Virus record (IMG/VR): IMGVR_UViG_3300044448_003259
Strand: one strand, 5' to 3'
Length of the DNA: 31,321 bases
DNA from: a virus
The translations under genes were made by a program, and so were the position numbers. Positions within the stretch are counted from its first letter, which is position 1. Each line of letters begins with the position of its first letter. The notes beneath the pieces were generated by a model, which saw only the letters and a list, made by a program, of their open reading frames with translations, did not search any database and was not told the origin of the DNA. Below, piece after piece: positions 2,635 to 28,787 of this stretch.

Positions 2635-3754
2635 TGCTGGTACAAGAGTTGTAGTTAATCAAGGGGGAACAAGAAGCAGTAAAACATATTCATTAGCTCA
2701 ATTAATAATACTTAAAGCATTACAATCAAAGGGAAAGGTATATACCATTTGTCGTAAAACCCTACCTGCCTTAAAGGGTACCGCCTATCGTGATGTAATG
2801 TCTATATTAGAGGATCTTAATTTATACAATCCTGACAATCATAACAAGTCAGAATTAACATACACCTTAAATAATAATGAAATTGAGTTTATTTCAGTAG
2901 ATCAACCACAAAAAATTAGAGGTAGAAAGCGTAATGTGTTATGGCTTAATGAAGCAAATGAGTTTAGCTTTGAGGACTGGGTACAGCTCTCATTAAGAAC
3001 AACGGAAAATATCTATTTAGATTTTAACCCCTCAGATCCTTATTCGTGGATTTATGATAATGTAATAAATAGAGAAGATTGCACCTTTATTAAATCAACC
3101 TATTTAGACAATCCCTTTCTTCCACAAGAAACAATTAAAGAAATAGAAAGGTTAAAGGATTTAGATAGTAATTATTGGCAGATATATGGACTAGGAGATA
3201 TGGCTCAACCTACCGAAACTATATTTAGGCAGTTTAATCTATGCAATAATATACCAGCGGAATCAACGCTAATAGCTTTGGGTATGGACTTTGGCTATTC
3301 TAATGATCCTACCGCAATAGCAGAAGTATATAAGCTAAATGATAATTTGTATATAAATGAATTGGTATATAGCAAGGGATTGACAAATCAAGATATAGCA
3401 CAAAAATTAAGAGAGCTCAATATAACAAGACAAACAGAAATAATAGCAGATAGTGCTGAGCCTAAATCAATAGAAGAAATACATAGATTAGGGTTTAATA
3501 TAAAGGGAGCCAAGAAAGGGGCAGATAGTATTAATATGGGTATTGATGTATTAAGAAGATATAAGCTACATATTACAAAAAATAGCACAAATACCGTTAA
3601 TGAGTTTAAGTATTATAAGTGGCTTGTAGATAAGAATGGTAGGGTAATAAACAAACCTGCTACAAACCAATTAGACCACCTTATAGACGCTATTAGGTAT
3701 GTGGCTTTAAATAAGCTTACTACTAATTATAGTGGTAAATATTATATATTATGA
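2585..3754 (+). CDS. terL: Terminase large subunit
   Basis: Walker A-like NQGGTRSSKTYS and Walker B-like VLWLNEANEF. Nuclease motifs MDFGYSNDPTA and LDHLIDAIRYV. The frame opens only at 2582 and has no in-frame ATG, so the start must be TTG (2585 or 2594), overlapping terS by about 50 nt. Confidence 0.85.
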   Translation: MKSLNLKGTVVLQKNLNAGTRVVVNQGGTRSSKTYSLAQLIILKALQSKGKVYTICRKTLPALKGTAYRDVMSILEDLNLYNPDNHNKSELTYTLNNNEIEFISVDQPQKIRGRKRNVLWLNEANEFSFEDWVQLSLRTTENIYLDFNPSDPYSWIYDNVINREDCTFIKSTYLDNPFLPQETIKEIERLKDLDSNYWQIYGLGDMAQPTETIFRQFNLCNNIPAESTLIALGMDFGYSNDPTAIAEVYKLNDNLYINELVYSKGLTNQDIAQKLRELNITRQTEIIADSAEPKSIEEIHRLGFNIKGAKKGADSINMGIDVLRRYKLHITKNSTNTVNEFKYYKWLVDKNGRVINKPATNQLDHLIDAIRYVALNKLTTNYSGKYYIL

Positions 3755-3781
3755 ACAAAAACACTAAAACTATATTTATAT
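3750..3781 (+). promoter_or_regulatory. Bipartite promoter-like motif, copy C: TATGAACAAAA-N11-ATATTTATAT
   Basis: Same two boxes and the same 11-nt spacer as at 12719, 13770 and 16325. Ends 3 nt before the ATG at 3785. Confidence 0.5.
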
Positions 3782-3784
3782 AAA

Positions 3785-4411
3785 ATGAAGTACGAAGAAA
3801 TAGAATTAAAGATACCTACCAGCTGGAATGATATAACAATAGGAATGTATCAGCAATTTGTTAAGATTAACAAAAAGAAGTTTGATACTGATGAAGAAAG
3901 AACAGCAGAATTAATTTGTGCCTTATGTGAAGTAAAGCCAAGTCAATTAGAAAGATTTAAGTATAAGGATCTTAAATACATAGTAAAGAAAATATCTAAA
4001 TTAATGGATAGCGAGATAGATGATAAAACGCTAGTAAAGAAAGTAGATTTTAAAGGAAATAAATTAGGCTTAATACCAAACTTTAGCTCTATTACTTTAG
4101 GTGAGTTTGTTGATATAGAAAGCTATTGTAAAGATTCTTATAAAAACCTACACAAATTGATGAGTGTAATATATAGACCTATTGTAAAAGAAAAAGGGGA
4201 AAAGTATAATATTGAAGAATACAAGCCTGATGAGTTTAAAGCAGATGAGTATTTAGATTTTCCAATAGTAGCGTCAATGAGTTCATTGAGTTTTTTTTTT
4301 CGTTTAGGGAAACAACTCAAACTCGCTTTGCTCAAATATTCGAGCAGGGAAGTGGAGAGGAAGATCAAAAAGCTGAAAAGATTACAGAGAAGTGGGGTTG
4401 GTATAATGTGA
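3785..4411 (+). CDS. Hypothetical morphogenesis protein, 0-frame product. Candidate frameshift gene (tail-assembly-chaperone-like architecture).
   Basis: 208-aa ORF. A T10 run at 4291-4300 lies 37 codons before its stop. See the -1 frame extension feature. Confidence 0.6.
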   Translation: MKYEEIELKIPTSWNDITIGMYQQFVKINKKKFDTDEERTAELICALCEVKPSQLERFKYKDLKYIVKKISKLMDSEIDDKTLVKKVDFKGNKLGLIPNFSSITLGEFVDIESYCKDSYKNLHKLMSVIYRPIVKEKGEKYNIEEYKPDEFKADEYLDFPIVASMSSLSFFFRLGKQLKLALLKYSSREVERKIKKLKRLQRSGVGIM

Positions 4412-4551
4412 TATTTGCTTTGTGTAATGAGAATATTTTGAATGTAGAGCAAGTAACAAGATTAGAATTATATTTAGTTTTAACTTATATGTGCTATAAA
4501 CAAGATATGCAAAGCCAACAAAATAATAATTATAGTAAATACAAAGAATGA
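4291..4551 (+). other. T10 slippery run (4291-4300) plus an open -1 frame extension (4300..4551) that ends in an ATGA overlap with the next gene
   Basis: My translation of the -1 frame: FFFSFRETTQTRFAQIFEQGSGEEDQKAEKITEKWGWYNVIFALCNENILNVEQVTRLELYLVLTYMCYKQDMQSQQNNNYSKYKE*. No stops from 4249 to 4551. TGA at 4549-4551 overlaps the ATG at 4548. Confidence 0.6.
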
Positions 4552-5060
4552 TAACATACAAAAACATATCAGATATATTTCAGGATATAGCCACAAATCA
4601 TTATTTAATAAACTCCTATCATAATGGTTTTTTAGACGAGGTTGATGTAGATAAGATGAATGAAAGTAACTTTCCTATACTATATGTAGAGCCCTCAACA
4701 TCAACAATAGATCAAGGTGTGCTAACCTATTCTTGTAATGTTTATGTATTAAATTTATTAAAAGAAGATTTAAGCAATAGGGAGATAGTTTGGTCTAGTA
4801 CATTAGAAATAACGCAAGACATAATTGCAGAGTTTAAACAAAATCTATCACTACAAACATCAGGCGGTGATAGTGGTAAAAAATATAGCTATGCAGAAAA
4901 CGAAATAGTATTAGAGCTTCCAATAAGCACGGATCCTATTACTGCAAGATTTGCTAATATATTAACAGGCTGGGTTTCAGGAATCTCATTACAGGTTAAT
5001 AACGCTAATTCACTTTGCAACGCTCCTATTGAGCCAAGCGACAAAGACGCTAATACATAA
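4548..5060 (+). CDS. Hypothetical virion (neck/tail) protein
   Basis: 170-aa ORF, translationally coupled on both sides within the structural block. No motif recognised. Confidence 0.55.
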   Translation: MITYKNISDIFQDIATNHYLINSYHNGFLDEVDVDKMNESNFPILYVEPSTSTIDQGVLTYSCNVYVLNLLKEDLSNREIVWSSTLEITQDIIAEFKQNLSLQTSGGDSGKKYSYAENEIVLELPISTDPITARFANILTGWVSGISLQVNNANSLCNAPIEPSDKDANT

Positions 5061-5668
5061 TGCAGATAAAAATTAGAAACGCAAGAACAGGTAAATATAG
5101 TAAAGGACCAACTACTAATTCAATAAAAGCCTTTAAGGATTTTGGTACAGAAATAGTAACAAAGGGTAAAAAAATATTAAAGAAAAGTGAAAAGAAAGGA
5201 TCAGGAACATTAATAAATGACTATAAATATAAGTTTAAAAAGACAGGTAGCTCAATGGAGTTAACTTTTGAATTTGGTGGAGCTAAAGATTATTGGAAGT
5301 TTATAGATCAAGGTGTTGTTGGGGTAGGTGGCTATAAAGGAAGTGGTAATGCAAGGGGTAGAGGAAGTAAATATAAATTCAAATATGACAACCCAGCTGG
5401 AAAGTTAGTTGAAGCTTTAGAGGGTTGGATAAGTAGTAGGAGTATTCCTTTAAAAAATAAAATGACCATAACTCAAACAGCTTTTGCTATGGGTTATTCA
5501 ATTAAAAGGAGAGGTTTAGAAAGAACTTTATTTTTTACTAAACCAATGGATAAAATGTATAAGAAAATGCAAAAAAAGGTATTAAAAGCCTATGAGAAAG
5601 ATTTTCAAAAGGTTGTTGATAAAATGGATTCAGTAATAGCAGTATTAAAAGATAAATCAGAACTTTAA
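5060..5668 (+). CDS. Hypothetical virion protein, possibly HK97 gp10-like neck/tail-completion protein
   Basis: GSGTLINDYKYKFKKTGSSMELTFEFGGAKDYWKFIDQGVVG loosely resembles the TG-x-L...YA-x-fvE-x-G pattern of gp10-family proteins. Confidence 0.35.
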   Translation: MQIKIRNARTGKYSKGPTTNSIKAFKDFGTEIVTKGKKILKKSEKKGSGTLINDYKYKFKKTGSSMELTFEFGGAKDYWKFIDQGVVGVGGYKGSGNARGRGSKYKFKYDNPAGKLVEALEGWISSRSIPLKNKMTITQTAFAMGYSIKRRGLERTLFFTKPMDKMYKKMQKKVLKAYEKDFQKVVDKMDSVIAVLKDKSEL

Positions 5669-5671
5669 AAA

Positions 5672-7114
5672 ATGGCGTATACAATAGAACAAAAACCAAA
5701 CCAATTAGCAGGAGCAAATAGCCCTATGGTTTATGTATTAAAAGAAAGTGACGGAGCAATAACAGGAGCTAGTAAATTTAGATATATAGCACAAGTATAT
5801 ATAAGCACAACAGATGAAAGCACTTGGGTGGAAAAGGCTAAAATAAAAATATATAAAAATGCAGCAGGTGTTGGTATAGTAGATATACATAAAATAGTAA
5901 GAACATTTTTAGAAACACAAACACAAGTATCAATAGAGGATCCGTCAGGCACATTTACTGAATCAACAGGAATAACAGGTAATATACACTGTGCAGGTAT
6001 AGCTGTTGCCGATAGTCCCTTTTCATCTAATACAAGTCAATTAGTAGGAGTTAAATTAGTTGGTGGTTATGAAAAATCTACAAGTGCCACAGCAGCTCCA
6101 ACAGAAACATTAAATCAAGCCAATACAATAATATACTCAATACCTGCAACTACTCCATTTACATCAACAGCTTCTAATGTAGGGGGCTTAGATAAAGATG
6201 GAACTAACAATCCTTTAACTAATTATATTCCTAGTAGTAGCTCAAAGAAGTTTTTAACTAATTCTCCTACCGTTCAATTTGTGAGGGGTGGAGATGACGC
6301 AGCAGATAATGTAGACCACGCTACTGTTGGCTTTATACAAGATGGTAATAGTGTTTTAATAACTGACGGAGATCCTATTGTTAGAATATATGTACAATAC
6401 CACCAAGCAGATGGAACAAGTATAGGTTTGCACCATTTTGTTAATGAGCTAAATGGTGGTGGAATAGCTACTGCTGATGATGTGAGAAATAGCTTGTTAT
6501 ACTTTGGTTGTGGTACTAAAAATTTAGAAACCCAAAGTGATGTTACAGCAGCAAGACCTAGTAATAATGACGGTTGGGTTTATTATAGAGTGTGGGGAGC
6601 AAATGGAGATAATTCACAACAAGAAACAACCTATTATTATTTTTATAAATATGGAGCTAATGCTGGTGTAAACAATAGACACCAAAGTTGCACAAGATAT
6701 AACAACATTAGATTAGCTTGGGTAAATAGATTAGGCTGTTGGGACTATATGAATTTTAGAGGAAAGTCAGTTGAGGGTGTTGATATTAAAAGAAGCGAAA
6801 TGGAAAGTGTGCCCGGAACTTGGAATAATGCAACCTTTGCTTATGAAAATCAAGAGGGGGGAAGAAAGATTTTATTTACAGAAGCTAAAAGAAAATTAAA
6901 TATTAACTCTGATTGGCTAAATGAAGATGAGGCAGTATGGTTAGAGGAATTATTTACCTCTACTCAAGTACATCAAATACAAGACGATAGTGTTGTTTAT
7001 CCTGTTATAGTAACAAACAAATCATATACTAAAAAAACCAGCGTAAACAATAAGATTAAAATACAATACAAAATAACATTAGAATACGCAAACAAAGTAA
7101 GAACTAATAGCTGA
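5672..7114 (+). CDS. Tail structural protein (distal-tail/baseplate candidate)
   Basis: 480-aa ORF directly upstream of, and coupled (TGATG) to, the 1140-aa tail protein. No catalytic motif. Confidence 0.45.
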   Translation: MAYTIEQKPNQLAGANSPMVYVLKESDGAITGASKFRYIAQVYISTTDESTWVEKAKIKIYKNAAGVGIVDIHKIVRTFLETQTQVSIEDPSGTFTESTGITGNIHCAGIAVADSPFSSNTSQLVGVKLVGGYEKSTSATAAPTETLNQANTIIYSIPATTPFTSTASNVGGLDKDGTNNPLTNYIPSSSSKKFLTNSPTVQFVRGGDDAADNVDHATVGFIQDGNSVLITDGDPIVRIYVQYHQADGTSIGLHHFVNELNGGGIATADDVRNSLLYFGCGTKNLETQSDVTAARPSNNDGWVYYRVWGANGDNSQQETTYYYFYKYGANAGVNNRHQSCTRYNNIRLAWVNRLGCWDYMNFRGKSVEGVDIKRSEMESVPGTWNNATFAYENQEGGRKILFTEAKRKLNINSDWLNEDEAVWLEELFTSTQVHQIQDDSVVYPVIVTNKSYTKKTSVNNKIKIQYKITLEYANKVRTNS

Positions 7115-10100
7115 TGGATATAAGATTGTTGGCATATAGAAGAAACACAACCTCAGAGGGAACTTATGATTTAACTCAATTTGAATTAGATTTACAAAAA
7201 GCCCCTAATGTAGTAGCTAATTATAATTGGATAAATTTAAAGGAGCCTGATAAAAGAAAATCTAGTTTTAGTCAAACACTTAAACTGCCTTTTTCCAATA
7301 GAAACAATAAGTTTTTTGAAAATTACTTTGATGTTAATTTAGATACTTTAGTATATAATGCTAAAATAAAATTTAACGCTATTCTTTATGTGGATAGTGT
7401 TCCTCAATTAAAAGGCTTTATACAGCTTAAAGCTGTTTATTTAAACGCTAGGGTTTATCAGGTTGTTTTATTTGGAGCAACAGCAGACTTTTTTACTGAT
7501 ATTAAGTCAGCTAAATTAAAGGACGCTTTTAAAACTACTAGCAACACGGATCCTGATGTTCAATTAATAGACGGACAGCTAGACCATTTTTTAACTCCTG
7601 CTAATATAGTTAAAAGCTGGACATCAGGGGTAACATTAGCAGGTGGTGGTAGTGATGATGACATACTATACCCTATTATAGATTATGGACATACTTCTGT
7701 TCCTTATTCAAGTGCTATGTTTTGGACTCCTGATGATTTATACCCTACAGGAATAGGTGCCCCTACAGATAGTGCAGATTTTTATGGAGCTGTTAGGGCA
7801 GGAGATTTAAAACCTGCAATAAGAATACAAAGATTAGTTCATATAATAGCACAAAAAGCAGGCTATCAAATTAAAAGTGCTTTTATGGGTATTGATGATA
7901 CAGCAGAAACTCCAATAACAGACACTCAATTCTTTAGTAGGTTGTTTATGACCTTAGCTAATCAATTTCAAAGAGTTCAAACCTTATTTAATTCTGTTGA
8001 GGGTAGTCAAGTTCCTTTTGTTGGATTTAGCACTTCTTTAAGTGTGTTTACCTATCCTACTTCTATGCCTTGTGTTTTGTTAGCAAATGATCCACCGTTT
8101 CCTGACAATCTTCCTTATACTAACTTTAATGAATTGTGCTACCCTAATTTAGCAACATTTACTACTGCCTATGATCCTAATAATTTATTTACAGTAGCAA
8201 CAAATGATCCTGCTGATTCTTTTGGTCCACTTGGTTATCGACCTAGAGTTACTTTTCCTGCAGATTTTGACGGAGATGATGTTACGCTAAGTGAGGGTGA
8301 CTTTCCTGTAAAAGTAACAGCAACAATACAAATACCTGAGCAAACTGTTCAAGGAACTGATTTAGGTTTTTGTTATGTTATGATAGGCTGGGACGAGGGT
8401 GGAATTGCTAGTGGTTATGGAAACACAGATTATCAAGATTTTCTTTTAAACCCAGGCACTCATACTGTAGAATGGACTTATAATATGAATTGCACACCTA
8501 ACAATATCTATGAAATGTTTATAGAGCTTGAAGCTAATGACACAAACCAATCTAGTGTTCCTGATAACAATACTTGGCAGCCTAGGGTTACAGCTTTAAG
8601 TATAGAATCGGTAAATGGTGGGGTAAATACTTTAATGGGTGGTGGTGAAAATGGTTTAGTTTCGATTCATCACAATTTACCTGATATGACACAATCTGAT
8701 TTTATAAGAGATTTAGTAAACAGGTTTAATTTAGTTATTCAAACAGACGCAGACAATGAAAAGTTATTACTAATAGAGCCTTATCAAGATTTTATAGACG
8801 CTGGGAGTATTCAGTATTGGACAGATAAATTAGATATTTCTAAAGAGGTGGTTATAAAGTCCACTAACGAATTACAATCTAAAACTTTAAAATTTAGTGA
8901 TTTGTTAGACAAAGATATTTTAAACGAAAGATATAATAAGCTCTATGATGTGGTTTATGGACAATATGAAAAGCTACAATTATCAGATTTTGCAAAAAAG
9001 GACTTTAAAAACTTTAGTGTGTTTTCTCCTTTTATTGCACAAGGAATACCCTATTGGACTAATGGTGGAATAAATGGAGCTATACCCTCTGCTGATGTTG
9101 CGTTAGCTTATTTATTTAAAGCAGAAGTAGGGCAACAAGCTACAGCTACAGACCTTAAGCCTAAAATGTTTTATTATAGTGGAACTCCTATAAATGTGCA
9201 AGGATCAAACCCTAACACAAGTAATAATTATAGCTTTCATATATACTCAAATGGATATTTAACAAATAATGACGCACACCCCTCAGATGACAACAACGGA
9301 TCTGCAAATAAGTTTCCTTTATGTACACAATACAATTTAGACAATTTATCTACAGGAGTAACATCAGCAACAAAGGTTTTAAATTGGACTTATTACGGAA
9401 ACAATTTTACTACAGGATTTACTTTTAATTTCTTTGGAGATGTTTATACAGACCACGGTTTTTATCACGACTATTGGGCTCAATATATAAATGAGATATA
9501 TAGTGATGAGGCTAGAATAATGGAGTGCTATTTGAATTTAACACCTGAAGATATAAGGACTTTTTCAGGTAATGGCTTTCAAAATACATACTTTATTAAA
9601 AATACTTTGTGGAGAATTATTAGTATAAGTAATTATGCTGTTGGTAAAAACAAATCAACAAAAGTAGTTTTATTAAAGGTGTTGCAAAAGTTAAGTAATG
9701 ATTGTGGTAATATTCCTACTATTAGTCAAACAGGACAAATAACTTGGGTTGACGCTGGTACAGGTGCCTCGGTTGCAAGTGTTACTAATTCTTGTTGTGA
9801 GGAGCAAAACGAAAATTGGACTTTTGTTCAAACTAATGCGACTACAGGTGTAGGACAATGTTATGCTATTGGTGGGGATAGTGGAGATACAACTTTAGTA
9901 GATTTAGTTTCTACAGAGGGGGAGATTATAATAGGCACAGATGAAACATTTACAGGTGGCGATGGTAATGGAGATACATCAGGTATGAATATGTCTATGC
10001 TGCCGACAATACAAAACAATTTCGGAATACAAACATCTCAAGGACAAGGTAAATCTTTAACTTATTTTTGTGAATGTACTACCTATGATAATTCTACACC

Positions 10101-10536
10101 AGTTAAAGTTTCTTTTAAAGGATATGATTCTAATATTTTAACCTTTCCGTCTTTTACTATGAACTATATCACTGTAAAATTATATGGTACTGTGATGTCA
10201 GGAGCTAATAATAGAGATGTTGGTTATTTTGAGTATGATACAATTATAACAAAAAGAGGCGACACTAATGATTATGTAGGAAGTTCAGGGGGAACATTTT
10301 TAAAGCAAAATAAAGATACAAGCTTTAGTGCCCCAACGGTAGATATAACAAATTTTGACGGACAGAATTGGTCGCCTATTATAAGGGGTGGGGCTGACGA
10401 GGACGTTTTTTGGGTAGCAGAAGTTAAAATTACTAGCACACCTGTAAATATACCAACTTTAAGAAGAAGGGCAGCTATTTATCAAAACGCAGATGATATA
10501 TTAACGCAGGATCTAAATTATTTATTATGGAATTAG
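7114..10536 (+). CDS. Large tail protein (tail tip / host-recognition candidate)
   Basis: Largest ORF (1140 aa), Gly/Thr/Asn-rich, with a Cys-containing C-terminal third. Its size and position among tail genes suggest the role. Confidence 0.5.
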   Translation: MDIRLLAYRRNTTSEGTYDLTQFELDLQKAPNVVANYNWINLKEPDKRKSSFSQTLKLPFSNRNNKFFENYFDVNLDTLVYNAKIKFNAILYVDSVPQLKGFIQLKAVYLNARVYQVVLFGATADFFTDIKSAKLKDAFKTTSNTDPDVQLIDGQLDHFLTPANIVKSWTSGVTLAGGGSDDDILYPIIDYGHTSVPYSSAMFWTPDDLYPTGIGAPTDSADFYGAVRAGDLKPAIRIQRLVHIIAQKAGYQIKSAFMGIDDTAETPITDTQFFSRLFMTLANQFQRVQTLFNSVEGSQVPFVGFSTSLSVFTYPTSMPCVLLANDPPFPDNLPYTNFNELCYPNLATFTTAYDPNNLFTVATNDPADSFGPLGYRPRVTFPADFDGDDVTLSEGDFPVKVTATIQIPEQTVQGTDLGFCYVMIGWDEGGIASGYGNTDYQDFLLNPGTHTVEWTYNMNCTPNNIYEMFIELEANDTNQSSVPDNNTWQPRVTALSIESVNGGVNTLMGGGENGLVSIHHNLPDMTQSDFIRDLVNRFNLVIQTDADNEKLLLIEPYQDFIDAGSIQYWTDKLDISKEVVIKSTNELQSKTLKFSDLLDKDILNERYNKLYDVVYGQYEKLQLSDFAKKDFKNFSVFSPFIAQGIPYWTNGGINGAIPSADVALAYLFKAEVGQQATATDLKPKMFYYSGTPINVQGSNPNTSNNYSFHIYSNGYLTNNDAHPSDDNNGSANKFPLCTQYNLDNLSTGVTSATKVLNWTYYGNNFTTGFTFNFFGDVYTDHGFYHDYWAQYINEIYSDEARIMECYLNLTPEDIRTFSGNGFQNTYFIKNTLWRIISISNYAVGKNKSTKVVLLKVLQKLSNDCGNIPTISQTGQITWVDAGTGASVASVTNSCCEEQNENWTFVQTNATTGVGQCYAIGGDSGDTTLVDLVSTEGEIIIGTDETFTGGDGNGDTSGMNMSMLPTIQNNFGIQTSQGQGKSLTYFCECTTYDNSTPVKVSFKGYDSNILTFPSFTMNYITVKLYGTVMSGANNRDVGYFEYDTIITKRGDTNDYVGSSGGTFLKQNKDTSFSAPTVDITNFDGQNWSPIIRGGADEDVFWVAEVKITSTPVNIPTLRRRAAIYQNADDILTQDLNYLLWN

Positions 10537-10709
10537 AATATAAAATAAAAATATTAGGCTATTTTTTTTCAACAGTTTTAACAGAAGTAACTGATAAAGA
10601 ATTTAAAGAAAAAGAGTGGGATTTTGTTTATGGAGAAAACGAATTAACTAAAGATTATAAAAAGGTTATAAAACAATTTAAGAGATATGTCAGACACAAA
10701 GAAATTTAA
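10527..10709 (+). CDS. Small hypothetical protein
   Basis: 60-aa ORF bridging two large genes, overlapping both ends. Plausible composition, no motif. Confidence 0.4.
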   Translation: MELEYKIKILGYFFSTVLTEVTDKEFKEKEWDFVYGENELTKDYKKVIKQFKRYVRHKEI

Positions 10710-12723
10710 AATAGTTGTAGATTCTAAAGGAGCTGAAAAGGGTTTAAAGAAAACCTCAAAAGGTCTTAAAGATGTAGGTAAATCTAGTAAGGCTTCATCT
10801 AAAGGTTTTAAGATGATGGGTACTGCTATGAAAGCTATGGGTATAGGGTTAATTATTGCAGTGGTTGCGAAATTGACAGAAATGATGATGAAAAACCAAA
10901 AAGTTCAAGATCTAGTGGCTAGGGTAATGGACACTCTTGGGAAAGTGATGAATGTTGTAATTGACATAATGTTTGAAGCCCTAAAGGTTATAGATAAGCT
11001 AACTTTTGGTATGCTTAATTTATCAGGTGAAGCAGATGGAGCCACTAAATCACTTCAAAAACAAAGAAATGAATACGAGTTACTTGAAGCTGGTATGGAG
11101 AAAATTAAACTCCAATATGAAACTCAAATTGAAAAGCTACGACAAATAAGGGACAATGAAAGCTTGACAATGGAAGAAAGGATCGCTGCCTCTGACGCAA
11201 TAGCCAAAACCCTAGATCAGCAATACGCTACAGAAAGAGCAAGGATTTTAGAGATGATTCAGGTTAAAAAGAATCTTTTAAAAGCAGATAGACATAATAT
11301 AGAACTAAAGAAAGAGTTGTTAGCAGTTGAAACAATGCTGGCAGAACTTGACAATAGAATAACAAGCCAAAGATCAGAACAATTACAATCTTTTAATTCA
11401 CTAAAAAGCTCACAAGTAAAATTATCCACAAGCTCAAGTAAGGCTATTAAAGAAGAAGTAAAGAGTGTTGAGGCTATGATCCTAGCTTTAGATAAATATG
11501 GTGGTAAGATAGTTTTATCAGAAGAAGAAAAACACAAGGAAACTCTTGTCAATATGGAAAAAGAGTTTTGGGATAATATATTAGCAATAAGAGAAAACCA
11601 ATCTAAAGCAGACAAAAAGAAACAAAAAACAGAATTTGATAGAGATTTAAAAAACGAAAAAAAGACATTAAACAAGCAAAAGGAAAGTTTAGAAGAATGG
11701 TATAGATATTTAAAAAATGCTAGAAATGAGGAAGATCAAGCTACTGCTAGAGATAATATAAGAAAATACAAACAAACTATTGAAGCACAAGAGGAAGTAG
11801 TAAGGATTCTTCGTGAAGCAAGAGAAACTACTATTAGAAACAATAGTGCTTATAGTGAAGATGAGGTAAATTTAATTGAAGCCTATAATAAAAAGAAAGA
11901 GCAAATAATAAAAGACTATAACGATAAGGTTAAAGCTGATGCTGAAAAAGAACAACAACGAATAAATGATATAAATAAACAGGCTTTAAATATAGCCGAA
12001 GAAGATTTACGAAGTGCAAAAAGTAAAGAGCTTCAAGCTATACAAGATAAATACCAAAAGATATTAGCACAAGAAGAATTAGGGGAAATAGAAAGATTTG
12101 AAATACAAGAAAGGTGGAAAAGAGATAAGGCAGCCTTGGATCAAAAATATAAGGATATAGAGGAAGCAAAAGAAAAAGAAAAAAGAGATTTCTTTATAGA
12201 TAGTGCTGTTCAATTAGCACAAAGTTTAACTCAAATTTCAGCAGCAAGAGCAAACAATCAAATAGCTAATTTAGAAAAAGAGTTTAAAGAGGGTATAATA
12301 TCAGAAGAACAATTTAATAAGCGTAAAAATAAAATTGAAGAACAACAAGCTAAAAAAGAAAAGGCAGCAGCTTTGTTACAAATTGGAGTAGATACTGCAA
12401 GGGGTATTTCAGCAGCAGTACAGGCAGGGGCAGGTATTCCTTTTCCAGGTAATTTAGCAGCAATAGCGACAGGGGTTTTAGCAGTTGTAGGTGGTATTGC
12501 TCAAGCTTCTGCAATATTAGGGCAAACACCTGAAGGAATTGATACTGATACAGAAGAAGCAGGATTCGATGATGAGTTTGAGGGGGGACAAGCACAAGTG
12601 CCCTCTGTTACCTTTGGGGCAGCAGGGGCAGACGCTCCACCTGTTCAGGCTTTTGTAGTTGAAAGTGATGTTAGTGGTAGTCAGGCTTTAGCAGAAGATT
12701 TAGAGCTACAAGCAACCTTATAA
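10687..12723 (+). CDS. Tape-measure-like protein
   Basis: N-terminal basic segment followed by a hydrophobic helix (GIGLIIAVVAKL). Long K/E-rich predicted coiled coil. C-terminal Gly/Ala-rich hydrophobic stretch (GISAAVQAGAGIPFPGNLAAIATGVLAVVGGIAQASAILG). Confidence 0.55.
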   Translation: MSDTKKFKIVVDSKGAEKGLKKTSKGLKDVGKSSKASSKGFKMMGTAMKAMGIGLIIAVVAKLTEMMMKNQKVQDLVARVMDTLGKVMNVVIDIMFEALKVIDKLTFGMLNLSGEADGATKSLQKQRNEYELLEAGMEKIKLQYETQIEKLRQIRDNESLTMEERIAASDAIAKTLDQQYATERARILEMIQVKKNLLKADRHNIELKKELLAVETMLAELDNRITSQRSEQLQSFNSLKSSQVKLSTSSSKAIKEEVKSVEAMILALDKYGGKIVLSEEEKHKETLVNMEKEFWDNILAIRENQSKADKKKQKTEFDRDLKNEKKTLNKQKESLEEWYRYLKNARNEEDQATARDNIRKYKQTIEAQEEVVRILREARETTIRNNSAYSEDEVNLIEAYNKKKEQIIKDYNDKVKADAEKEQQRINDINKQALNIAEEDLRSAKSKELQAIQDKYQKILAQEELGEIERFEIQERWKRDKAALDQKYKDIEEAKEKEKRDFFIDSAVQLAQSLTQISAARANNQIANLEKEFKEGIISEEQFNKRKNKIEEQQAKKEKAAALLQIGVDTARGISAAVQAGAGIPFPGNLAAIATGVLAVVGGIAQASAILGQTPEGIDTDTEEAGFDDEFEGGQAQVPSVTFGAAGADAPPVQAFVVESDVSGSQALAEDLELQATL

Positions 12724-12750
12724 ACAAATTTTAATTAATTATATTTATTA
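12719..12750 (+). promoter_or_regulatory. Bipartite promoter-like motif, copy D: TATAAACAAAT-N11-ATATTTATTA
   Basis: Same spacing as the other copies, more degenerate upstream box (AACAA core kept). Ends 2 nt before the ATG at 12753. Confidence 0.4.
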
Positions 12751-12752
12751 GT

Positions 12753-13766
12753 ATGGGAAAAGAAAAAATTAAAAAAGTAGAACTAATAATAGATGAAGAA
12801 GAAGAAAGATTTGGTGTAGAAGCTATTAGTTTAGTAGAGTTTCCAGCAATAGAAGAAAATTGGGTTTTCTTTAATAAGGATCAATTTTTAACTTTAGCTA
12901 AATTAGATGAAGAACAAAAAACATTAGTAGGAGCAGTATTAATTCCTAATAAAGAGATTCCTAGATACGATCAAGAAAAAGATGAGAAGTTTGTAGTATT
13001 CTTTACAGAAGATACTATTAAACAAGCACAAGAGCTATTTATGTCAAGTTTAAGAAACAATAACGCTACCTATGAACACAAGGTGCCTGTAGAGGGTATT
13101 ACGGTTGTAGAAAGTTGGATAAAGGAAGATAAGAAAAACGACAAATCTAATTCTTTTGGTTTTAATAAACTACCTATTGGAACTTGGTTTGTAAAAATGA
13201 AAGTTAATAATGACGATATATGGAATAGTGTAAAAGAGGGTAAGGTAAGAGGATTTAGTATTGAGGGGTATTTTACAGACAAATTAATCGAAGCTTCAAA
13301 ACCTAAAGATATTATAGATTTAGCAGAAGATTGTATTGATTGTCCTGATGAGGTTACATTAGGAAAAATTAGAGATTTAATACTAGAAAATGAATTAGCT
13401 GTTGTGGGGGCTTTAGACGGAGAGCCTTTATTTGCTACTAAAGAAGAAGCTAAAATTTATGCAGAAATGTTTAAGGGTTGCGAGGGCTTTCATACTCATA
13501 ATGTAGATGGAGTAATTAGGTATATGGCTTGTGAAACACACGAAGCTGGAACAAAAAAAGAGTATATTGAAGATGAATTTGGTAAAAAGAAAAAGAAATA
13601 TACTAGAAAACATAAGTATATTGAGTATGTTAGCTTTGCTAATAGACAAGCTTTAGCTAAATATCCTTGGGAACAATGTATTAAGGATATGGTAAAAGAA
13701 TATGGCAACAAAGAAACTGCTGCAAAAGTATGTTCAGCCATTAAAAATAGGACAGCAAAACGCTGA
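12753..13766 (+). CDS. Putative prohead protease (XkdF-like) / head maturation protein
   Basis: EAISLVEFPAIEENWVFF...GAVLIPNKEIPRYD...FVVFFTEDTIKQAQELFM...YEHK resembles the XkdF-type domain. Lies directly upstream of the scaffold and capsid genes. Confidence 0.5.
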   Translation: MGKEKIKKVELIIDEEEERFGVEAISLVEFPAIEENWVFFNKDQFLTLAKLDEEQKTLVGAVLIPNKEIPRYDQEKDEKFVVFFTEDTIKQAQELFMSSLRNNNATYEHKVPVEGITVVESWIKEDKKNDKSNSFGFNKLPIGTWFVKMKVNNDDIWNSVKEGKVRGFSIEGYFTDKLIEASKPKDIIDLAEDCIDCPDEVTLGKIRDLILENELAVVGALDGEPLFATKEEAKIYAEMFKGCEGFHTHNVDGVIRYMACETHEAGTKKEYIEDEFGKKKKKYTRKHKYIEYVSFANRQALAKYPWEQCIKDMVKEYGNKETAAKVCSAIKNRTAKR

Positions 13767-13769
13767 GCC

Positions 13770-13801
13770 TGTGAACAATAATTTAAGTTTAATATTTATA
13801 A
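13770..13801 (+). promoter_or_regulatory. Bipartite promoter-like motif, copy A: TGTGAACAATA-N11-ATATTTATAA
   Basis: Both boxes identical to copy B (16325). Lies in the intergenic gap before the scaffold/capsid genes. Confidence 0.55.
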
Positions 13802-13816
13802 AAAAAGAATAACACA

Positions 13817-14524
13817 ATGGCAAGTACACTAGAAAAAATCAAAACGCTTTTATCAAAAAGCAAAGAAACAAAAATGTATGCTGAAATGATACTAGATGAC
13901 GGTAGGGTATTGGCAACCGAAGATGAGCAGTTTATGATAGGCTCTGTTGTAATGGTTGTTGGTGATGACGGAGCAACAGAAAAATTACCAGCAGGATCCT
14001 ACACAATGTCTGACGGAGCTAAAATAACAATAGATGAAAATTCTAAAATTGTTGATTTAGGAGAAGAAAAAGAAGCAGAGGGTGTAGAAAAACCTGAAGA
14101 AATGCAAGAAGAAGATGAGGAGAAAGAAGAAGAAACAAAAGCAGAGGAAGAAGAAATAGATGAAGAAAAATTAGCTAAAGCAATAGATGAAGCTACTCCT
14201 GATAGTGTAGATAAAAAGAAAGCTAAAGATATGGCTAAAAGAGTAAAGGAATATGCCGAAGAAGAAGAAAAAGAAGAAGAAAAGGTAGAAGCAAGTAAAG
14301 AAGAAGAAAAAGATAAAGAGGAAGTAGTAGAAATGTCTAAAGATTTAATTACAAGTTTAGTTGAAGAAGTAGAACACTTAAAATCTAAAGTTGTTGAGCT
14401 AGAAAAAGTACCAGGATCAAAAGGCTTTACTCACAACCCTGAAAACAATACTAAATCGGAAAAACCGAATTTAGCTAATATGACAGCACAAGAAAGAGCT
14501 GCATTTTACATTAACAATAAATAA
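13817..14524 (+). CDS. Scaffolding protein
   Basis: Extremely acidic E/K-rich helical low-complexity centre. Lies immediately upstream of the major capsid gene. Confidence 0.6.
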   Translation: MASTLEKIKTLLSKSKETKMYAEMILDDGRVLATEDEQFMIGSVVMVVGDDGATEKLPAGSYTMSDGAKITIDENSKIVDLGEEKEAEGVEKPEEMQEEDEEKEEETKAEEEEIDEEKLAKAIDEATPDSVDKKKAKDMAKRVKEYAEEEEKEEEKVEASKEEEKDKEEVVEMSKDLITSLVEEVEHLKSKVVELEKVPGSKGFTHNPENNTKSEKPNLANMTAQERAAFYINNK

Positions 14525-14532
14525 TTTTAAAA

Positions 14533-15522
14533 ATGGCAAACAAAATTCAATTATCAAAATATCACGAATTTGATATTACAGTAAATAGTGATACCTATGC
14601 AGGTGTTCACGCCCTGCCTTATGTAACGGCTGCTTTAAGAAGTCCTGATACAATAGCTAAAGGGTATGTTAGAACAATAGACGGTTTAAACAAATCAGCA
14701 GTAATTAGTAATGTTGCAGCTTCAAACTTAATTGTAGCAGCAGATGAATGTGGCTTCGTTTCAGGTGGTAACACTTCAACATCAGAGCAAATTCTAACGC
14801 TTACTGATTTAAAAGTAAACGAAGAAATATGTCGTCAAACTGTATTTCCAACGTGGATGGGACAGGGAATGGACAGAAACGGAAATTTACCTCAATCTTT
14901 TGGAGATTTCTTATTACAAGTTGTTGCAGCAAAAGCAGCAGCTCAATTAGAAATAGGAATTTGGCAAGGTAACTCTCCTTTTGGAACAGGCTTCTTATCT
15001 AATGACGGAACGCAAGATGAAGCAGGAGCAGACGCAAGTGCTTGTAAAGATTTTACAGAAGTAACTTTTGCTAACCCTTTAGATAACGGAGATATATTAG
15101 CAGGTATGAACGCTGTTTATGACGCTGCAGCTTCTGATATTTCAGGAATATTAACTAAGCCAGGTGTTGGATTCTATATGAACAATAAAACTTACGGTTT
15201 CTATATTCAGGCTCTAGCAGCAGCAGGATCTAATCAAGGTCAAATTTCAGGTTTAGGTTTTGACGCAAAATCTGATACTGCTACATTTTTCGGTTATCCG
15301 ATTTACAGATGTCCGGGAATGATGAATGATGTAATATTATTTACTTATCCTGATAATCTAGTATTTGGAACTAACGCAGCTACGGATTGGACTGAAGCAA
15401 GATTAATTCCAGCTTATGAGTATACAGGGGGAGATGAAGTTCGTATCGCTATGAACTTTGCTGTAGGAGTACAAACTGCTGTAGCAACTGATGGTGTTTA
15501 CGGAAGCACTGTTTGGACATAG
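14533..15522 (+). CDS. Major capsid protein
   Basis: 329 aa, Ala/Gly/Thr-rich. Follows the protease and scaffold genes and is followed by the strongest intrinsic terminator in the window. Confidence 0.7.
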   Translation: MANKIQLSKYHEFDITVNSDTYAGVHALPYVTAALRSPDTIAKGYVRTIDGLNKSAVISNVAASNLIVAADECGFVSGGNTSTSEQILTLTDLKVNEEICRQTVFPTWMGQGMDRNGNLPQSFGDFLLQVVAAKAAAQLEIGIWQGNSPFGTGFLSNDGTQDEAGADASACKDFTEVTFANPLDNGDILAGMNAVYDAAASDISGILTKPGVGFYMNNKTYGFYIQALAAAGSNQGQISGLGFDAKSDTATFFGYPIYRCPGMMNDVILFTYPDNLVFGTNAATDWTEARLIPAYEYTGGDEVRIAMNFAVGVQTAVATDGVYGSTVWT

Positions 15523-15536
15523 TAGATAGATAAATT

Positions 15537-15565
15537 AGGGGTGTGAAATACCACCCCTTTTTTTT
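15537..15565 (+). terminator. Rho-independent terminator after the capsid gene
   Basis: AGGGGTG (15537-15543) pairs with CACCCCT (15552-15558) around an 8-nt loop, followed by a run of T. Confidence 0.85.
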
Positions 15566-15598
15566 AAAAGGAAATATTAATATATAAAATAAAAAAAA

Positions 15599-16210
15599 AT
15601 GGCTTGTACTTTAACAAAAGGACTAACGGTTGATTGTAAGGATCAGATAGGTGGCTTGAAAGCAATATTTATAGTTTCTACATACTCTCCTGAAATCCGT
15701 AGTGCTGCTACCTTTAATGGTACTGATGTACTACAAATGGACACAGCAGGTTTCACAGGTTGGTCGGCTTATGGAACACCAACATCTTCAACGGTTACGG
15801 TTTTCAAATATGCTTTAAGACCTAATTTATCTTCTATGACGGTAAATATAAACTCTGATCCTGCGACAGGAACAACTTGGTTTGAACAAACTTTATCTTT
15901 ACAATTACAAAAACTAACTGTAGCTCAAACTAATGAGCTTAAATTAATTTCTTACAATAGAAGTCAGGTTTTTGTTCAAGATGTAAATGACAATGTGTTC
16001 TTATTAGGAATGGATAATGGAGTTGATGTTTCAGGTGGTACTGCTGTAACAGGAGCAGCCAAATCTGATATGACAGGATATACTTTAGAAATGAGAGCAG
16101 AAGAAAAAGACCCTATGATTTGGATAAAAGCAACTTCAGGTGGTGGAACTGATTATCCGTTTGACCAGCTGGGCGACGCAGACGCAGATTTAACTATTGT
16201 AGCTTCTTAA
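15599..16210 (+). CDS. Putative major tail (tube) protein
   Basis: 203 aa, Thr/Gly-rich, bracketed by two terminators (high-expression unit). QVFVQDVNDNVFLLGMDNGVDVSGGTAVTGAAKSDMTGYTLEM resembles siphovirus tail-tube patterns. Confidence 0.5.
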   Translation: MACTLTKGLTVDCKDQIGGLKAIFIVSTYSPEIRSAATFNGTDVLQMDTAGFTGWSAYGTPTSSTVTVFKYALRPNLSSMTVNINSDPATGTTWFEQTLSLQLQKLTVAQTNELKLISYNRSQVFVQDVNDNVFLLGMDNGVDVSGGTAVTGAAKSDMTGYTLEMRAEEKDPMIWIKATSGGGTDYPFDQLGDADADLTIVAS

Positions 16211-16234
16211 TCAATAATCGTTACTCAATACTAA

Positions 16235-16265
16235 AAGGGTTATCTTAATGGATAGCCCTTTTTTA
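16235..16265 (+). terminator. Rho-independent terminator
   Basis: AAGGGTTATC (16235-16244) pairs with GATAGCCCTT (16251-16260), with one G-U pair and a 6-nt loop, followed by a T-run. Confidence 0.75.
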
Positions 16266-16324
16266 TTAAATAAACTTTACAATTATTATGCTATTATAAA
16301 AAAAACTTTATAAAGCGTACAAGT

Positions 16325-16356
16325 TGTGAACAATATTACTATTTTTATATTTATAA
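16325..16356 (+). promoter_or_regulatory. Bipartite promoter-like motif, copy B: TGTGAACAATA-N11-ATATTTATAA
   Basis: Lies in the intergenic gap downstream of the terminator, 12 nt before the ATG at 16369. Confidence 0.55.
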
Positions 16357-16368
16357 TAAACTAGAACT

Positions 16369-19255: not shown

Positions 19256-19260
19256 AAATT

Positions 19261-19839: not shown

Positions 19840-19910
19840 TATGATAACAAAGCAAAAGGTCAAAGAAAGACAAAAAAATATAACTAAATTAAAAACTTAT
19901 TTAAAGCAAA

Positions 19911-21469: not shown

Positions 21470-21471
21470 GT

Positions 21472-21957: not shown

Positions 21958-21958
21958 T

Positions 21959-23839: not shown

Positions 23840-24478
23840 TTGGTTATTGGAGATTTGCACGAGCCCTTTTGTTTAGAAAACTATTTATATTTTTGCGTAG
23901 AGCAATATCATAAATATAACTGCAATGAGGTTGTTTTTATTGGAGATATAATAGACAATCACTACGCTAGTTATCACGAAACATCAGCAGACGGTATGGG
24001 TGGCTCTGATGAGCTTGAGCTTTCTATAGAGTGTATAGCTAGGTGGTATTTAGCGTTTCCAAAGGCAACTGTAATTATAGGAAATCACGACAGAATGATA
24101 ATGAGAAAAGCACAAACCTCTGCTATTCCTAGTAAATGGATCAAAAGCTATAAAGATGTTTTAGAGGTACCCAGCTGGAATTTTGTAGAAAGATACGAAA
24201 AGGATAATGTTCAATATTTACACGGAGAGGGTGGAACAGCAAGAACAAAGTGCAGAGCAGATATGCAGAATACAGTACAAGGACATTTACATACTCAAGC
24301 TTATTGTGAACATTATGTAGGTCAAAATTTTAGAGTGTTTGGTTTACAAGTAGGTTGTGGGATTGACCACGAAAGTTACGCTATGGCTTATGCTAAATAC
24401 GGAAAGAAACCAGCTATTGGTTGTGCGGTTGTTTTAAATAATGGAAAGCAGCCTATTAATATTTTAATGGAGCTATAA
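23840..24478 (+). CDS. Calcineurin-like metallophosphoesterase
   Basis: VIGDLHEP (DxH), VFIGDIIDN (GDxxD) and IIGNHD (GNHD), in the canonical order. Non-ATG (TTG) start. The frame is open upstream to 23750 with no ATG. Confidence 0.75.
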   Translation: MVIGDLHEPFCLENYLYFCVEQYHKYNCNEVVFIGDIIDNHYASYHETSADGMGGSDELELSIECIARWYLAFPKATVIIGNHDRMIMRKAQTSAIPSKWIKSYKDVLEVPSWNFVERYEKDNVQYLHGEGGTARTKCRADMQNTVQGHLHTQAYCEHYVGQNFRVFGLQVGCGIDHESYAMAYAKYGKKPAIGCAVVLNNGKQPINILMEL

Positions 24479-26591: not shown

Positions 26592-26816
26592 ATGAGATTT
26601 AAACAATTTAATACTCAGGATCAAGTAAAAGAAACCTTGATGCTGGAAATGATGAAAAACAAAGTAAAGAAAAATCATTTAGCAAAAGAGCTAGGGCTGT
26701 CTTACCCAACAATGTTGGCGAAATTAGATAGTCCTTTTAGCTTTAAAGTAAGTGAGCTTTTATTATTATGCGAAGTAATCAATATGGATCTAAACGAATT
26801 ATTAATTAAATACTAA
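26592..26816 (+). CDS. XRE/Cro-type HTH transcriptional regulator
   Basis: KKNHLAKELGLSYPTMLAKLDSP is an HTH. 74 aa, first gene of the rightward operon. Confidence 0.6.
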   Translation: MRFKQFNTQDQVKETLMLEMMKNKVKKNHLAKELGLSYPTMLAKLDSPFSFKVSELLLLCEVINMDLNELLIKY

Positions 26817-26821
26817 ACAAA

Positions 26822-27223
26822 ATGGAAATTAAAAAATCAAAAATTGAAGAATTAAATTTACAAGCAGATAAATTTAACGATATGTTTATTTTTACTATAT
26901 CTTTTGAAAATGGAGATATAGGAAAGTTATATAAGAAAAAGGAAAAAATCTTTGAAAAAGTAGGAGATGAAGTAGAATATACTTTAAGTCCTAAAGGAAC
27001 TGTTAAAATAATTTTTAAAGGAGATACTCAATTTAGTCAAAAATCTCCCAGCTATTCAAATACTAAAACTGATGTAAATACAGAAATAAGATTTAGTGTA
27101 GCTTTTAAAGGGGCTATTGAATTAGCTGCAGGTGGAAAAATAGGTATTGATGAGGTTGAGAAGTTTACAGTAATGTATGATGAATTTCTTAAAGACAAAA
27201 CATCAGTTGAAATGCCTTTTTAA
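26822..27223 (+). CDS. Hypothetical protein
   Basis: 133-aa ORF, no motif recognised. Confidence 0.5.
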   Translation: MEIKKSKIEELNLQADKFNDMFIFTISFENGDIGKLYKKKEKIFEKVGDEVEYTLSPKGTVKIIFKGDTQFSQKSPSYSNTKTDVNTEIRFSVAFKGAIELAAGGKIGIDEVEKFTVMYDEFLKDKTSVEMPF

Positions 27224-27292
27224 CAATCAATTATTAATAACTTTTTTTTTAATATTTTTTGAATATTAAAAATTATTTATATTTTTAAAATT

Positions 27293-28054
27293 ATGAAATC
27301 AATATTAGCGTCAAGTTCTTTCTTTATTATTAATAAAAACCTGTTATATTTTGTTGGGCTTGACGCAAGTATTGTTTTATCAGATCTTGTACAAAAGAGG
27401 GCATACTTTAAACAAACCCACCAATTAAACGGTGGGTTTTTTTATAACACCTCTGAATCAATTAGCTGTAGTACTTCGCTTTCTTATTATCAAATTAAAC
27501 AAGCTTTGTCAATCTTACAAAGAAACGATTTTGTAGAGGTTAAGTTAAAAGGAATACCGGCAAAAAACCATTTTAAAATATTTGATGACAAAATATTAAA
27601 ATACCTAAATACCTGTAATGAAAAAATTGTAATACAGGAATGCGAAAATTTTAAATTAAATAATAATAAAGAAATAAGAATAAAAAATAATAACAAGAGT
27701 AGCTCTCGCAAAGAAAGGTTTTTAAATGATTTAAAAGAATTAGAGCCTAGAGATTATATAGAGGACTTTGTTGATTATTGGACAGAAGAAAACAATTCAG
27801 GTAAACAAAGGTGGGAATTAGAAAAAACTTGGAATACCAGCTTAAGATATAAGCGTTGGTGTAGAAATCAAAAGAATTTTAGCAACGGAAGTAGTGCAAA
27901 TAATATGCCTGACTTTTTAGATAGTGCATACTTAAATAGAATTAGAGAGGATCAATCACAAGTAAACAAGTTTTACAAACACCTTGTAGATAATTGTCAG
28001 TATGAAAAAATAGAAACTTTAACAGGCCACATTAAATACAGAAAGAAAAGATGA
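27293..28054 (+). CDS. Putative replication organiser / DNA-binding protein (N-terminal winged-helix-like)
   Basis: FFIINKNLLYFVGLDASIVLSDLVQKRAYF...SESISCSTSLSYYQIKQALSILQRNDFVEV resembles the N-terminal wHTH of DnaD/phage replication initiator-like proteins. Weak call. Confidence 0.3.
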   Translation: MKSILASSSFFIINKNLLYFVGLDASIVLSDLVQKRAYFKQTHQLNGGFFYNTSESISCSTSLSYYQIKQALSILQRNDFVEVKLKGIPAKNHFKIFDDKILKYLNTCNEKIVIQECENFKLNNNKEIRIKNNNKSSSRKERFLNDLKELEPRDYIEDFVDYWTEENNSGKQRWELEKTWNTSLRYKRWCRNQKNFSNGSSANNMPDFLDSAYLNRIREDQSQVNKFYKHLVDNCQYEKIETLTGHIKYRKKR

Positions 28055-28650: not shown

Positions 28651-28787
28651 TATTTATAAGTTTTATAAAGAATGGTTTGTTGCTTGGGGTTAGACATTTT
28701 GAGCCTGATGAAATAAGAAAGTATTGGGAGATCCATATACTATTATTAGTATTTCAAATTAATATATTTATACATACAGAAAAATGA
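28647..28787 (+). CDS. 46-aa hypothetical protein (below the track cutoff)
   Basis: My translation: MIFISFIKNGLLLGVRHFEPDEIRKYWEIHILLLVFQINIFIHTEK*. ATGA overlaps at both ends link the two methyltransferase genes. Confidence 0.4.
   Translation: MIFISFIKNGLLLGVRHFEPDEIRKYWEIHILLLVFQINIFIHTEK

Follow-up and report, generated by a model that had tools for sequence, protein, structure and literature searches.

Late-gene switches driven by a phage-encoded sigma factor are textbook knowledge, with SPO1, T4, and PBSX as examples, and the principle is not new. The T4 late promoters consist of a −10 box only (TATAAATA), and their sigma factor gp55 has no sigma4 domain. In PBSX, a defective prophage of Bacillus subtilis, the "positive control sigma-like factor" Xpf resembles sigma factors of the extracytoplasmic function (ECF) type and activates the late morphogenesis and lysis operon. 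Among cellular ECF promoters, that of Escherichia coli sigmaE reads GGAACTT-N16-TCAAA and that of B. subtilis sigmaW reads TGAAAC-N16-CGTA; the AAC of classical ECF promoters lies N16/17 from the −10 element (B. subtilis sigmaW and sigmaX, E. coli sigmaE). Here we analyze the IMG/VR virus record IMGVR_UViG_3300044448_003259 (31,321 nt; the whole stretch is called the window below), in which a bipartite motif occurs at five conserved sites on the + strand and an open reading frame (ORF) at 30139..30666 (+) encodes a sigma-like protein of 175 amino acids. On the evidence of sequence and predicted structure, it is likely that the five copies serve as late promoters for the ECF-type sigma factor that the phage itself encodes.

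A first-pass annotation of this DNA had proposed such a self-encoded sigma factor with its own late promoters, and the proposal is supported in silico: none of the computational observations that could have overturned it was made. An incomplete search of the literature found no description of a promoter/sigma pair of this kind in phages of Bacteroidota, an absence of evidence only. The published ECF classification states that phage ECF sigma factors are not captured by it (PMC7826278).

A bipartite motif at five sites

In genome order, and all on the + strand, the sites are C (3750..3781; TATGAACAAAA-N11-ATATTTATAT), D (12719..12750; TATAAACAAAT-N11-ATATTTATTA), A (13770..13801) and B (16325..16356), which share TGTGAACAATA-N11-ATATTTATAA, and E (30397..30428; GAAAAACAATT-N11-ATATTTATAC). 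Sites A to D are exactly as the first-pass annotation had given them, and all four are real; the conserved sites, however, number five, the fifth lying inside the sigma gene. The claim that there is no other intergenic copy is right, since both additional matches to the core motif sit in coding sequence. The upstream box had been described as T-n-T-n-AACAA; its invariant core is AAC(A/G)A, and the T-n-T positions are softer. Over the five copies the consensus is T-R-T-R-AAC-R-A / N12-13 / (T)ATATTTAT.

The core AACAA-N13-ATATTTAT, with 13 specified bases, has six exact matches on the two strands of the window, compared with a mean of 0.03 and a maximum of one in dinucleotide-preserving shuffles, so the motif is not an effect of base composition. 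A relaxed pattern that specifies the boxes only (RAACRA-N11-13-WATATWTA) is found five times on the + strand and once on the − strand, with 0.16 expected. A position weight matrix built from four sites did not separate signal from background: site E scores 13.9, and the maxima of random sequences have a mean of 13.2 and reach 18.6. Because this matrix is overfitted on the spacers, we used the box-only patterns instead. The minus-strand core match (23910..23935) lies inside ORF 23840..24478, a phosphoesterase gene, and is conserved in none of the orthologous sequences, being unique to the window; we therefore attribute it to chance and place it outside the system.

All five sites share the arrangement AAC-N16-TATTTAT. 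Two features of ECF-type promoters are present: an AAC in the −35-like element, invariant at the five sites and in both clades of relatives described below, and a rigid distance of about 16–17 nt from AAC to the −10-like box, which varies by no more than 1 nt in relatives. The third, a −10 element of CGT or GTC, is absent: clade 1 has ATATTTAT at this place, and clade 2 has ATATATAC/A. By their sequence, the sites would thus work like an ECF promoter but with an unusual −10 box.

The sites are closely fitted to their neighbors. At site C, the −35-like box TATGAACAA overlaps the TGA stop codon of the TerL gene (3752–3754), and the −10-like box ATATTTAT occupies 3772–3779, with the ATG of ORF 3785..4411 5 nt past it. 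At site D, the box TATAAACAA overlaps the TAA stop codon (12721–12723) of ORF 10687..12723, ATATTTAT lies at 12741–12748, and the protease ATG (12753) follows 4 nt past the box. The downstream box as delimited in the first-pass annotation ends 3 nt before ATG 3785 and 2 nt before ATG 12753, as had been noted; at sites A and B it ends 15 nt before ATG 13817 and 12 nt before ATG 16369, respectively. Site A, which begins 4 nt past the stop codon of the protease gene, lies ahead of the genes for the scaffold-like and major capsid proteins. Site E, with AACAA at 30401 and ATATTTAT at 30419–30426, lies in the linker-coding part of the sigma gene, more than 220 nt upstream of the next gene start, that of the first gene of the packaging module.

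Two intrinsic terminators divide the late region. The first (15537..15566, +), after the major capsid gene, is a hairpin followed by T8 (−12.8 kcal/mol, z = −2.9) and is conserved in relatives. The second (16233..16268, +), after ORF 15599..16210, has a stem of 13 bp (−16.7 kcal/mol, z = −5.1) and then a U tract, and its stem shows compensatory changes in relatives; site B lies 60 nt downstream of it. No terminator separates sites C, D, and A, which form a tandem series. The gene at 15599–16210, between the two terminators, has no AAC/ATATTTAT site, and the stretch before it (15523–15598 in the window) holds, in clade 2 relatives, a lone TATAAACAA box with no downstream box.

Conservation of the sites in related phages

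With the protease, sigma, and TerL proteins as queries, we retrieved 172 related loci from IMG/VR (1.9 Mb in total) and anchored the site alignments on flanking genes rather than on the motif. In these loci, all 246 exact matches to the core are on the gene strand and none is on the other, and they always fall on the same five orthologous positions; with the relaxed pattern, the gene strand has 393 matches and the other strand four. The boxes are invariant over variable spacers and stand directly upstream of the same genes, with box-to-box spacing fixed within 1 nt. This answers the call of the first-pass annotation for a check of conservation in related phages, and does so in its favor.

Two clades can be told apart. 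Clade 1 carries the box ATATTTAT; clade 2 has proteins about 60% (protease) and 50%–55% (sigma) identical to those of the window. At site D, T(A/G)TAAACAA and the downstream box are retained in 48 unique orthologous sequences, without variation of the boxes inside either clade, around an 11-nt spacer that is highly variable. Site A is conserved in 35 unique orthologous sequences, with TGTAAACAA-N-TATATATAC/A in clade 2. The ortholog of site C is present in all relatives (TATAAACGA-N-TATATATAC in clade 2), and at site B the boxes are conserved around a variable spacer (TG(C/A)AAACGA-N-TATATATAC in clade 2). Clade 2 thus keeps AAC(A/G)A at the same four intergenic places, at a spacing equal within 1 nt, and at sites A, B, C, and D has a downstream box (T)ATATATAC or (T)ATATATAA in place of ATATTTAT. 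Site E has changed in step with these intergenic sites: in clade 2 it reads ATATATTT/ATATATTA, the codons TAT-ATT-TAT having become TAT-ATA-TT(T/A).

Site E is an exact core match. It is invariant at the nucleotide level in 20 unique clade 1 sequences, and in these sequences codons 86–98 have the lowest synonymous diversity of the sigma gene (mean heterozygosity 0.033, compared with 0.242 for the gene). The codons TTT-TAT-ATT-TAT never vary at the site, while TAT/TAC varies at adjacent tyrosine codons. One relative (L163) encodes a different peptide here (NELMNNMDGINIYS) yet keeps TGAACAA-N14-ATATTTAT. The low synonymous diversity and the retention of the motif in L163 together indicate selection on the DNA at site E. 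For a product consisting of sigma4 only and translated from a transcript starting at site E, we found no conserved in-frame start codon downstream.

The sigma protein differs between the clades in a pattern that parallels the boxes. Its best conserved part is the helix-turn-helix (66%, ATKINR(S/N)TLGKSIR), which fits the constant AAC box, and where one clade has SNTSPYH in the predicted sigma2 loop region, the other has SSTSPF(Y/F). The clade-wise change of box and sigma2 agrees with a sigma factor predicted to read both boxes but is not proof of it.

Two clade 2 loci (L117, at 3822, and L110, at 3733) carry a sixth site of full consensus, TAAACAA-N13-ATATATAT, before the Cro-like first gene of the operon whose last gene is the sigma gene, where it could, judging by its position, provide positive autoregulation of the sigma operon. 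A site at this place is absent from the window.

A divergent sigma factor of the ECF type

The sigma gene is the last of a rightward block of replication and modification genes and lies directly upstream of the packaging module. Searches of Pfam, PHROGs, and the PDB with the single protein sequence returned nothing significant. Comparison with NCBIfam models and at the level of the family is more informative: the protein matches the NCBIfam model TIGR02937 (sigma70-ECF) end to end, residues 8–171 aligning to profile positions 7–163 of 165 (E = 9.5e-10), but at 38.4 bits, under the curated cut-off of 42.9; against Pfam Sigma70_r2 it reaches only 13.6 bits (E = 0.06) and the cut-off is 24. Just three NCBIfam models match it at E ≤ 0.01, and each is a sigma-70 or ECF model.

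An exhaustive search yielded 568 relatives, mostly of 160–190 amino acids, some of which carry JGI names of the sigma-24 or sigma-70 family. Among 53 diverse members, 48 match TIGR02937 and 30 match Sig70_bacteroi1 (TIGR02985), an ECF model for Bacteroidota; with Pfam, 14 of the 53 match Sigma70_r4_2 and five match Sigma70_r2. In a search of the PDB with the family profile, the best match is 9n9q chain C, an RpoE (E = 2.8e-4, over both domains), followed by Mycobacterium tuberculosis SigH and by region 2 of Streptomyces coelicolor SigR.

The AlphaFold2 model (predicted local distance difference test score, 93.2) comprises two helical domains, and residues 89–102 between them form a linker of low confidence. 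Its top Foldseek matches are almost all ECF sigma factors (9n9q chain C, SigE, SigL, SigH, SigW, E. coli sigmaE, and AlgU). Global template modeling (TM) scores are low, at about 0.3, which we ascribe to a different relative orientation of the domains, as matches at the domain level suggest: compared with region 4 of sigmaE on −35 DNA (2h27), the sigma4 part has a target-normalized TM score of 0.74. With 175 amino acids, and with sigma2 and sigma4 only, the protein has the architecture of ECF sigma factors (about 160–200 amino acids, without region 1.1 or region 3). TIGR02937, the family profile, the predicted fold, and the Foldseek matches thus bear out the first-pass description of a two-domain sigma-like protein, which we regard as a divergent sigma factor of the ECF type. 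No anti-sigma factor gene was recognized.

Proposed course of late transcription

From the arrangement of sites, genes, and terminators, the following course may be proposed. Host RNA polymerase would first transcribe the rightward block 26592..30666, which ends with the sigma gene, and the phage sigma factor would then bind the host core polymerase. The sigma4 helix-turn-helix would read the AAC box as the −35 element, and sigma2 would read and melt the AT-rich box 16 nt downstream of AAC as the −10 element, with transcription starting a few nucleotides past the AT-rich box. We infer that transcription starts at the sites, that this sigma factor is their reader, and that the genes behind them are expressed at the corresponding time.

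The promoter at site C (P_C, the others being named likewise) would serve the structural genes 3785..12723, P_D the protease gene, and P_A the scaffold-like and capsid genes in a unit closed by the strong terminator. As P_C, P_D, and P_A are in tandem without a terminator, transcription would accumulate toward the capsid gene. P_B, after the second terminator, would serve the portal, the remaining structural genes, and the lysis genes, and P_E would serve 30650..31018, the HNH gene, and, across the circular junction, the genes of the ParB-like protein, the TET-associated glycosyltransferase (TAGT), the TET protein, TerS, and TerL. In many other phages, late activators work at this place.

Transcription usually starts 6–8 nt past a −10 element. 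The start codons at 3785 and 12753 stand where the first transcribed base is expected, so leaderless mRNAs are predicted from P_C and P_D; the leaders at sites A and B would be about 8–12 nt long. Leaderless mRNAs would be tolerable in a genome almost devoid, by its sequence, of Shine-Dalgarno motifs.

Weighing the alternatives

Several observations count against this proposal. Neither the lysis genes nor the gene at 15599..16210 has its own site. The protein is below the curated cut-offs of both Pfam and NCBIfam, and the AT-rich −10-like box does not resemble the CGT-type −10 of most characterized ECF promoters. The co-variation between clades 1 and 2 is a single evolutionary event. A syntenic relative whose sigma protein is 37% identical to that of the window (L174) lacks the AACAA/ATATTTAT motif and presumably has another cognate promoter; its own motif was not found from the one locus, and the same result was obtained for another single locus (L095, sigma 32% identical). 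The phage is uncultured, and its host has been deduced only. Finally, at three of the four intergenic sites the clade 1 downstream box contains TAtaTTTA, one base from the Bacteroidota −7 box TAnnTTTG.

The last point leads to the rival that survives best, although we consider it unlikely: the sites are late promoters whose −10 box is read by a host sigma factor, primary or ECF, with the phage protein acting only as a DNA-binding activator on the AAC box, which would stand in for a −33 element, or taking no part. The subthreshold profile scores of the phage protein would fit such a role, and sigma-like late activators encoded just upstream of terS occur in other phages (RinA and ArpU families; PMC3152322). 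The phage protein nevertheless matches the ECF model over both domains, sigma2 included, and its fold matches complete ECF sigma factors. The boxes are rigidly spaced, as is typical when one two-domain protein reads both, and the clade 2 −10 box TATATATAC, which changed along with the sigma2 region of the phage protein, is further from TAnnTTTG than the clade 1 box. The primary-sigma promoter of Bacteroidota has TTTG about 19–21 nt upstream of TAnnTTTG; the sites have no TTTG at −33 and lack the final G. TAnnTTTG is not preferred anywhere in the genome (40 occurrences in the window, 53 expected), and matches to E. coli-type sigma70 promoters are not enriched in the window either (95, compared with 88.8 expected).

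It is far less probable that the motif binds another phage protein without serving as a promoter, whether as an operator for the Cro-like repressor, as a ParB-like or packaging site, or as a target of DNA modification. Candidate binders are at hand, as the phage encodes a Cro-like repressor, a ParB_N protein, a TET protein, a glycosyltransferase, and methyltransferases. Against them stand the asymmetry of the motif, which is no palindrome and keeps strictly to the coding strand, its bipartite, promoter-like geometry, and its position, always directly before late gene starts or 220 nt before the first packaging-module gene; moreover, the repressor probably has its operators in the divergent early region. 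The least probable reading, an RNA-level signal (translation initiation or re-initiation, a processing site, or a structured element), draws on the strand specificity of the motif, its closeness to start codons, its overlap with the preceding stop codon at sites C and D, and the lack of Shine-Dalgarno sequences, but it is countered by the absence of stable predicted structure (z-scores of −0.3 to +1.4) and of an Rfam match, by box-to-ATG distances that vary (intergenic sites, 2, 3, 12, and 15 nt; site E, >220 nt), by the presence of the motif directly before only four of 45 genes, with a fifth site within the sigma gene, and by its form, two boxes with a free spacer of fixed length being a pattern of protein–DNA recognition rather than of base-pairing.

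Genome organization and probable host

The window has 31.3 kb and 31% G+C. Its first ∼110 nt are repeated at its end (positions 1–120 and 31202–31321), so it represents a complete genome that is either circular or terminally redundant. A search for tRNA genes returned none. The window begins with genes for a ParB_N-domain protein (77–655), TAGT (PF20691; 645–1391), a TET/JBP dioxygenase (PF12851; 1388–2260), TerS (2257–2634), and TerL (2585–3754). After site C come the structural genes (3785–12723), and after site D the S78-type protease gene (12753–13766); site A is followed by the scaffold-like and capsid genes (13817–15522). The ORF of unknown function at 15599–16210 belongs to a PHROG family of unknown function, and its earlier label, "tail tube," is unconfirmed. 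Downstream of site B lie the portal gene (17366–19255), several genes of unknown function (19261–22769), and those for endolysin (22769–23386), holin (23373–23759), and phosphoesterase (23840–24478). A block of small leftward genes (24567–26462) and a divergent early region (26463–26591) follow, and then the rightward genes for the Cro-like repressor (start 26592), a replication protein (start 27293), two DNA methyltransferases (starts 28051 and 28882), a resolvase (start 29520), and the sigma factor with site E inside. A small ORF (30650–31018) and an HNH endonuclease gene (start 31015) lead across the junction back to position 77.

Two further elements occur on the early side. All relatives carry another conserved element, GCCTTTTTAAC...TGTTAATAAC (27215–27292 in the window), upstream of the replication gene. 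The divergent early region is enclosed by the arms of a perfect 10-nt inverted repeat, AGCTAATATA/TATATTAGCT (26486–26577). From sequence and position, both may be early promoter or operator elements.

Within ORF 3785–4411 there is a run of 10 T (4291–4300), from which the −1 frame stays open to about position 4547, filling an apparent gap of 136 nt. The run is a candidate site of programmed −1 frameshifting, in agreement with the earlier label "frameshift gene."

A module of DNA hypermodification adjoins the terminase genes (ParB_N protein, glycosyltransferase, and TET/JBP dioxygenase, 77–2260), and the two methyltransferase genes lie in the early block (28051–29523); the module suggests DNA with glycosylated 5-hydroxymethylcytosine. 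The syntenic locus L174, positions 4355–8011 of a JGI DelMOSum2010 contig with 39% G+C, has the gene order of the window (sigma, small ORF, ParB_N, TET, TerS, and TerL), with ParB_N and TET/JBP in the same position and no recognizable glycosyltransferase.

The nearest cultured relatives are distant: TerL is <40% identical to proteins of Bacteroides and Flavobacterium phages, and the portal is 36% identical to that of Nonlabens phages. Neither a nucleotide search of positions 12000–19900 nor a tblastn search with the sigma protein found a match among cultured phages. When a sigma alignment (A2) was run against representative genomes of bacteria and archaea, there were 88 pattern matches, of which not one was confirmed, so this search provides no link to a host or prophage. 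A Shine-Dalgarno-like 4-mer precedes only three of the 45 genes, and the upstream regions are 53% A. Taken together, the best matches of TerL and portal, the near-absence of Shine-Dalgarno sequences, and the matches to the Bacteroidota-type ECF model point to a marine member of Bacteroidota as the likely host. Marine Flavobacteriaceae are candidates, as the portal is closest to that of Nonlabens phages.

Implications

Relatives of this phage occur in Tara, JGI, and ENA marine metagenomes, many as contigs of 28–32 kb. Joining all of the above, we lean, though only somewhat, toward the broader view that abundant uncultured marine phages, probably infecting Bacteroidota, use an uncharacterized family of phage ECF sigma factors with a promoter code of its own. 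The evidence is compatible with a code of AAC-N16-TATTTAT that has a lineage-specific −10 variant changing with the sigma2 domain. It is also compatible with a layout in which one promoter lies in the linker-coding part of the sigma gene and two produce leaderless late mRNAs, their −35 elements lying over preceding stop codons. The further site before the sigma operon in the sister clade would add positive autoregulation.

If this is true, it would be the first defined promoter/sigma pair for phage late transcription in Bacteroidota, and the two clades would hold a natural pair of orthogonal sigma/promoter variants, possible expression parts for Bacteroidota. What is new is a testable promoter consensus, together with its likely reader, for a widespread group of uncultured marine phages. 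The motif permits late transcription units to be annotated in such genomes, and leaderless late mRNAs are predicted in a host group without Shine-Dalgarno sequences.

Comparison with known systems

The closest match among solved structures, by both profile and fold, is 9n9q chain C, from a Bacteroidota dCas12f-sigmaE-RNAP complex (bioRxiv 10.1101/2025.06.10.658880), and is thus an ECF sigma factor of the presumed host phylum. It differs in being a cellular protein of 261 amino acids that is recruited by an RNA-guided protein, the identity is only about 20%, and no functional link is implied. The system shares with the ECF (group 4) sigma factors a two-domain protein of about 175 amino acids, a −35 element with invariant AAC, and a rigid distance of about 16 nt to the −10 element; unlike the characterized ECF systems, it has an AT-rich −10 box (ATATTTAT or ATATATAC), and the protein is phage-encoded and very divergent, below curated cut-offs.

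As with SPO1 gp28 and gp33/34 and T4 gp55/gp33, a phage sigma factor would replace that of the host, producing a temporal switch, and short conserved promoters stand before late genes, as they do in large number in those phages. We detected no sequence relationship between the SPO1 and T4 sigma proteins and the protein of the window, and the promoters are not of the T4 type, as a conserved upstream box stands at a fixed distance and the protein includes a sigma4 helix-turn-helix.

With regard to PBSX Xpf, nine of the 53 diverse members of the sigma family weakly match the NCBIfam model PRK06930 (positive control sigma-like factor), whereas the protein of the window gives no match to it; PBSX also differs in host phylum and promoter sequence, and five dispersed promoters take the place of the one late operon promoter of PBSX. 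The position of the gene recalls the RinA/ArpU (Ltr) regulators of late transcription in phages of Gram-positive bacteria, which are encoded directly upstream of HNH/terS/terL (PMC3152322). By sequence the window protein is not one of these regulators, matching only sigma-70/ECF models of NCBIfam, and where RinA acts at a single promoter upstream of terS, here the equivalent site lies inside the regulator gene and is joined by four further sites.

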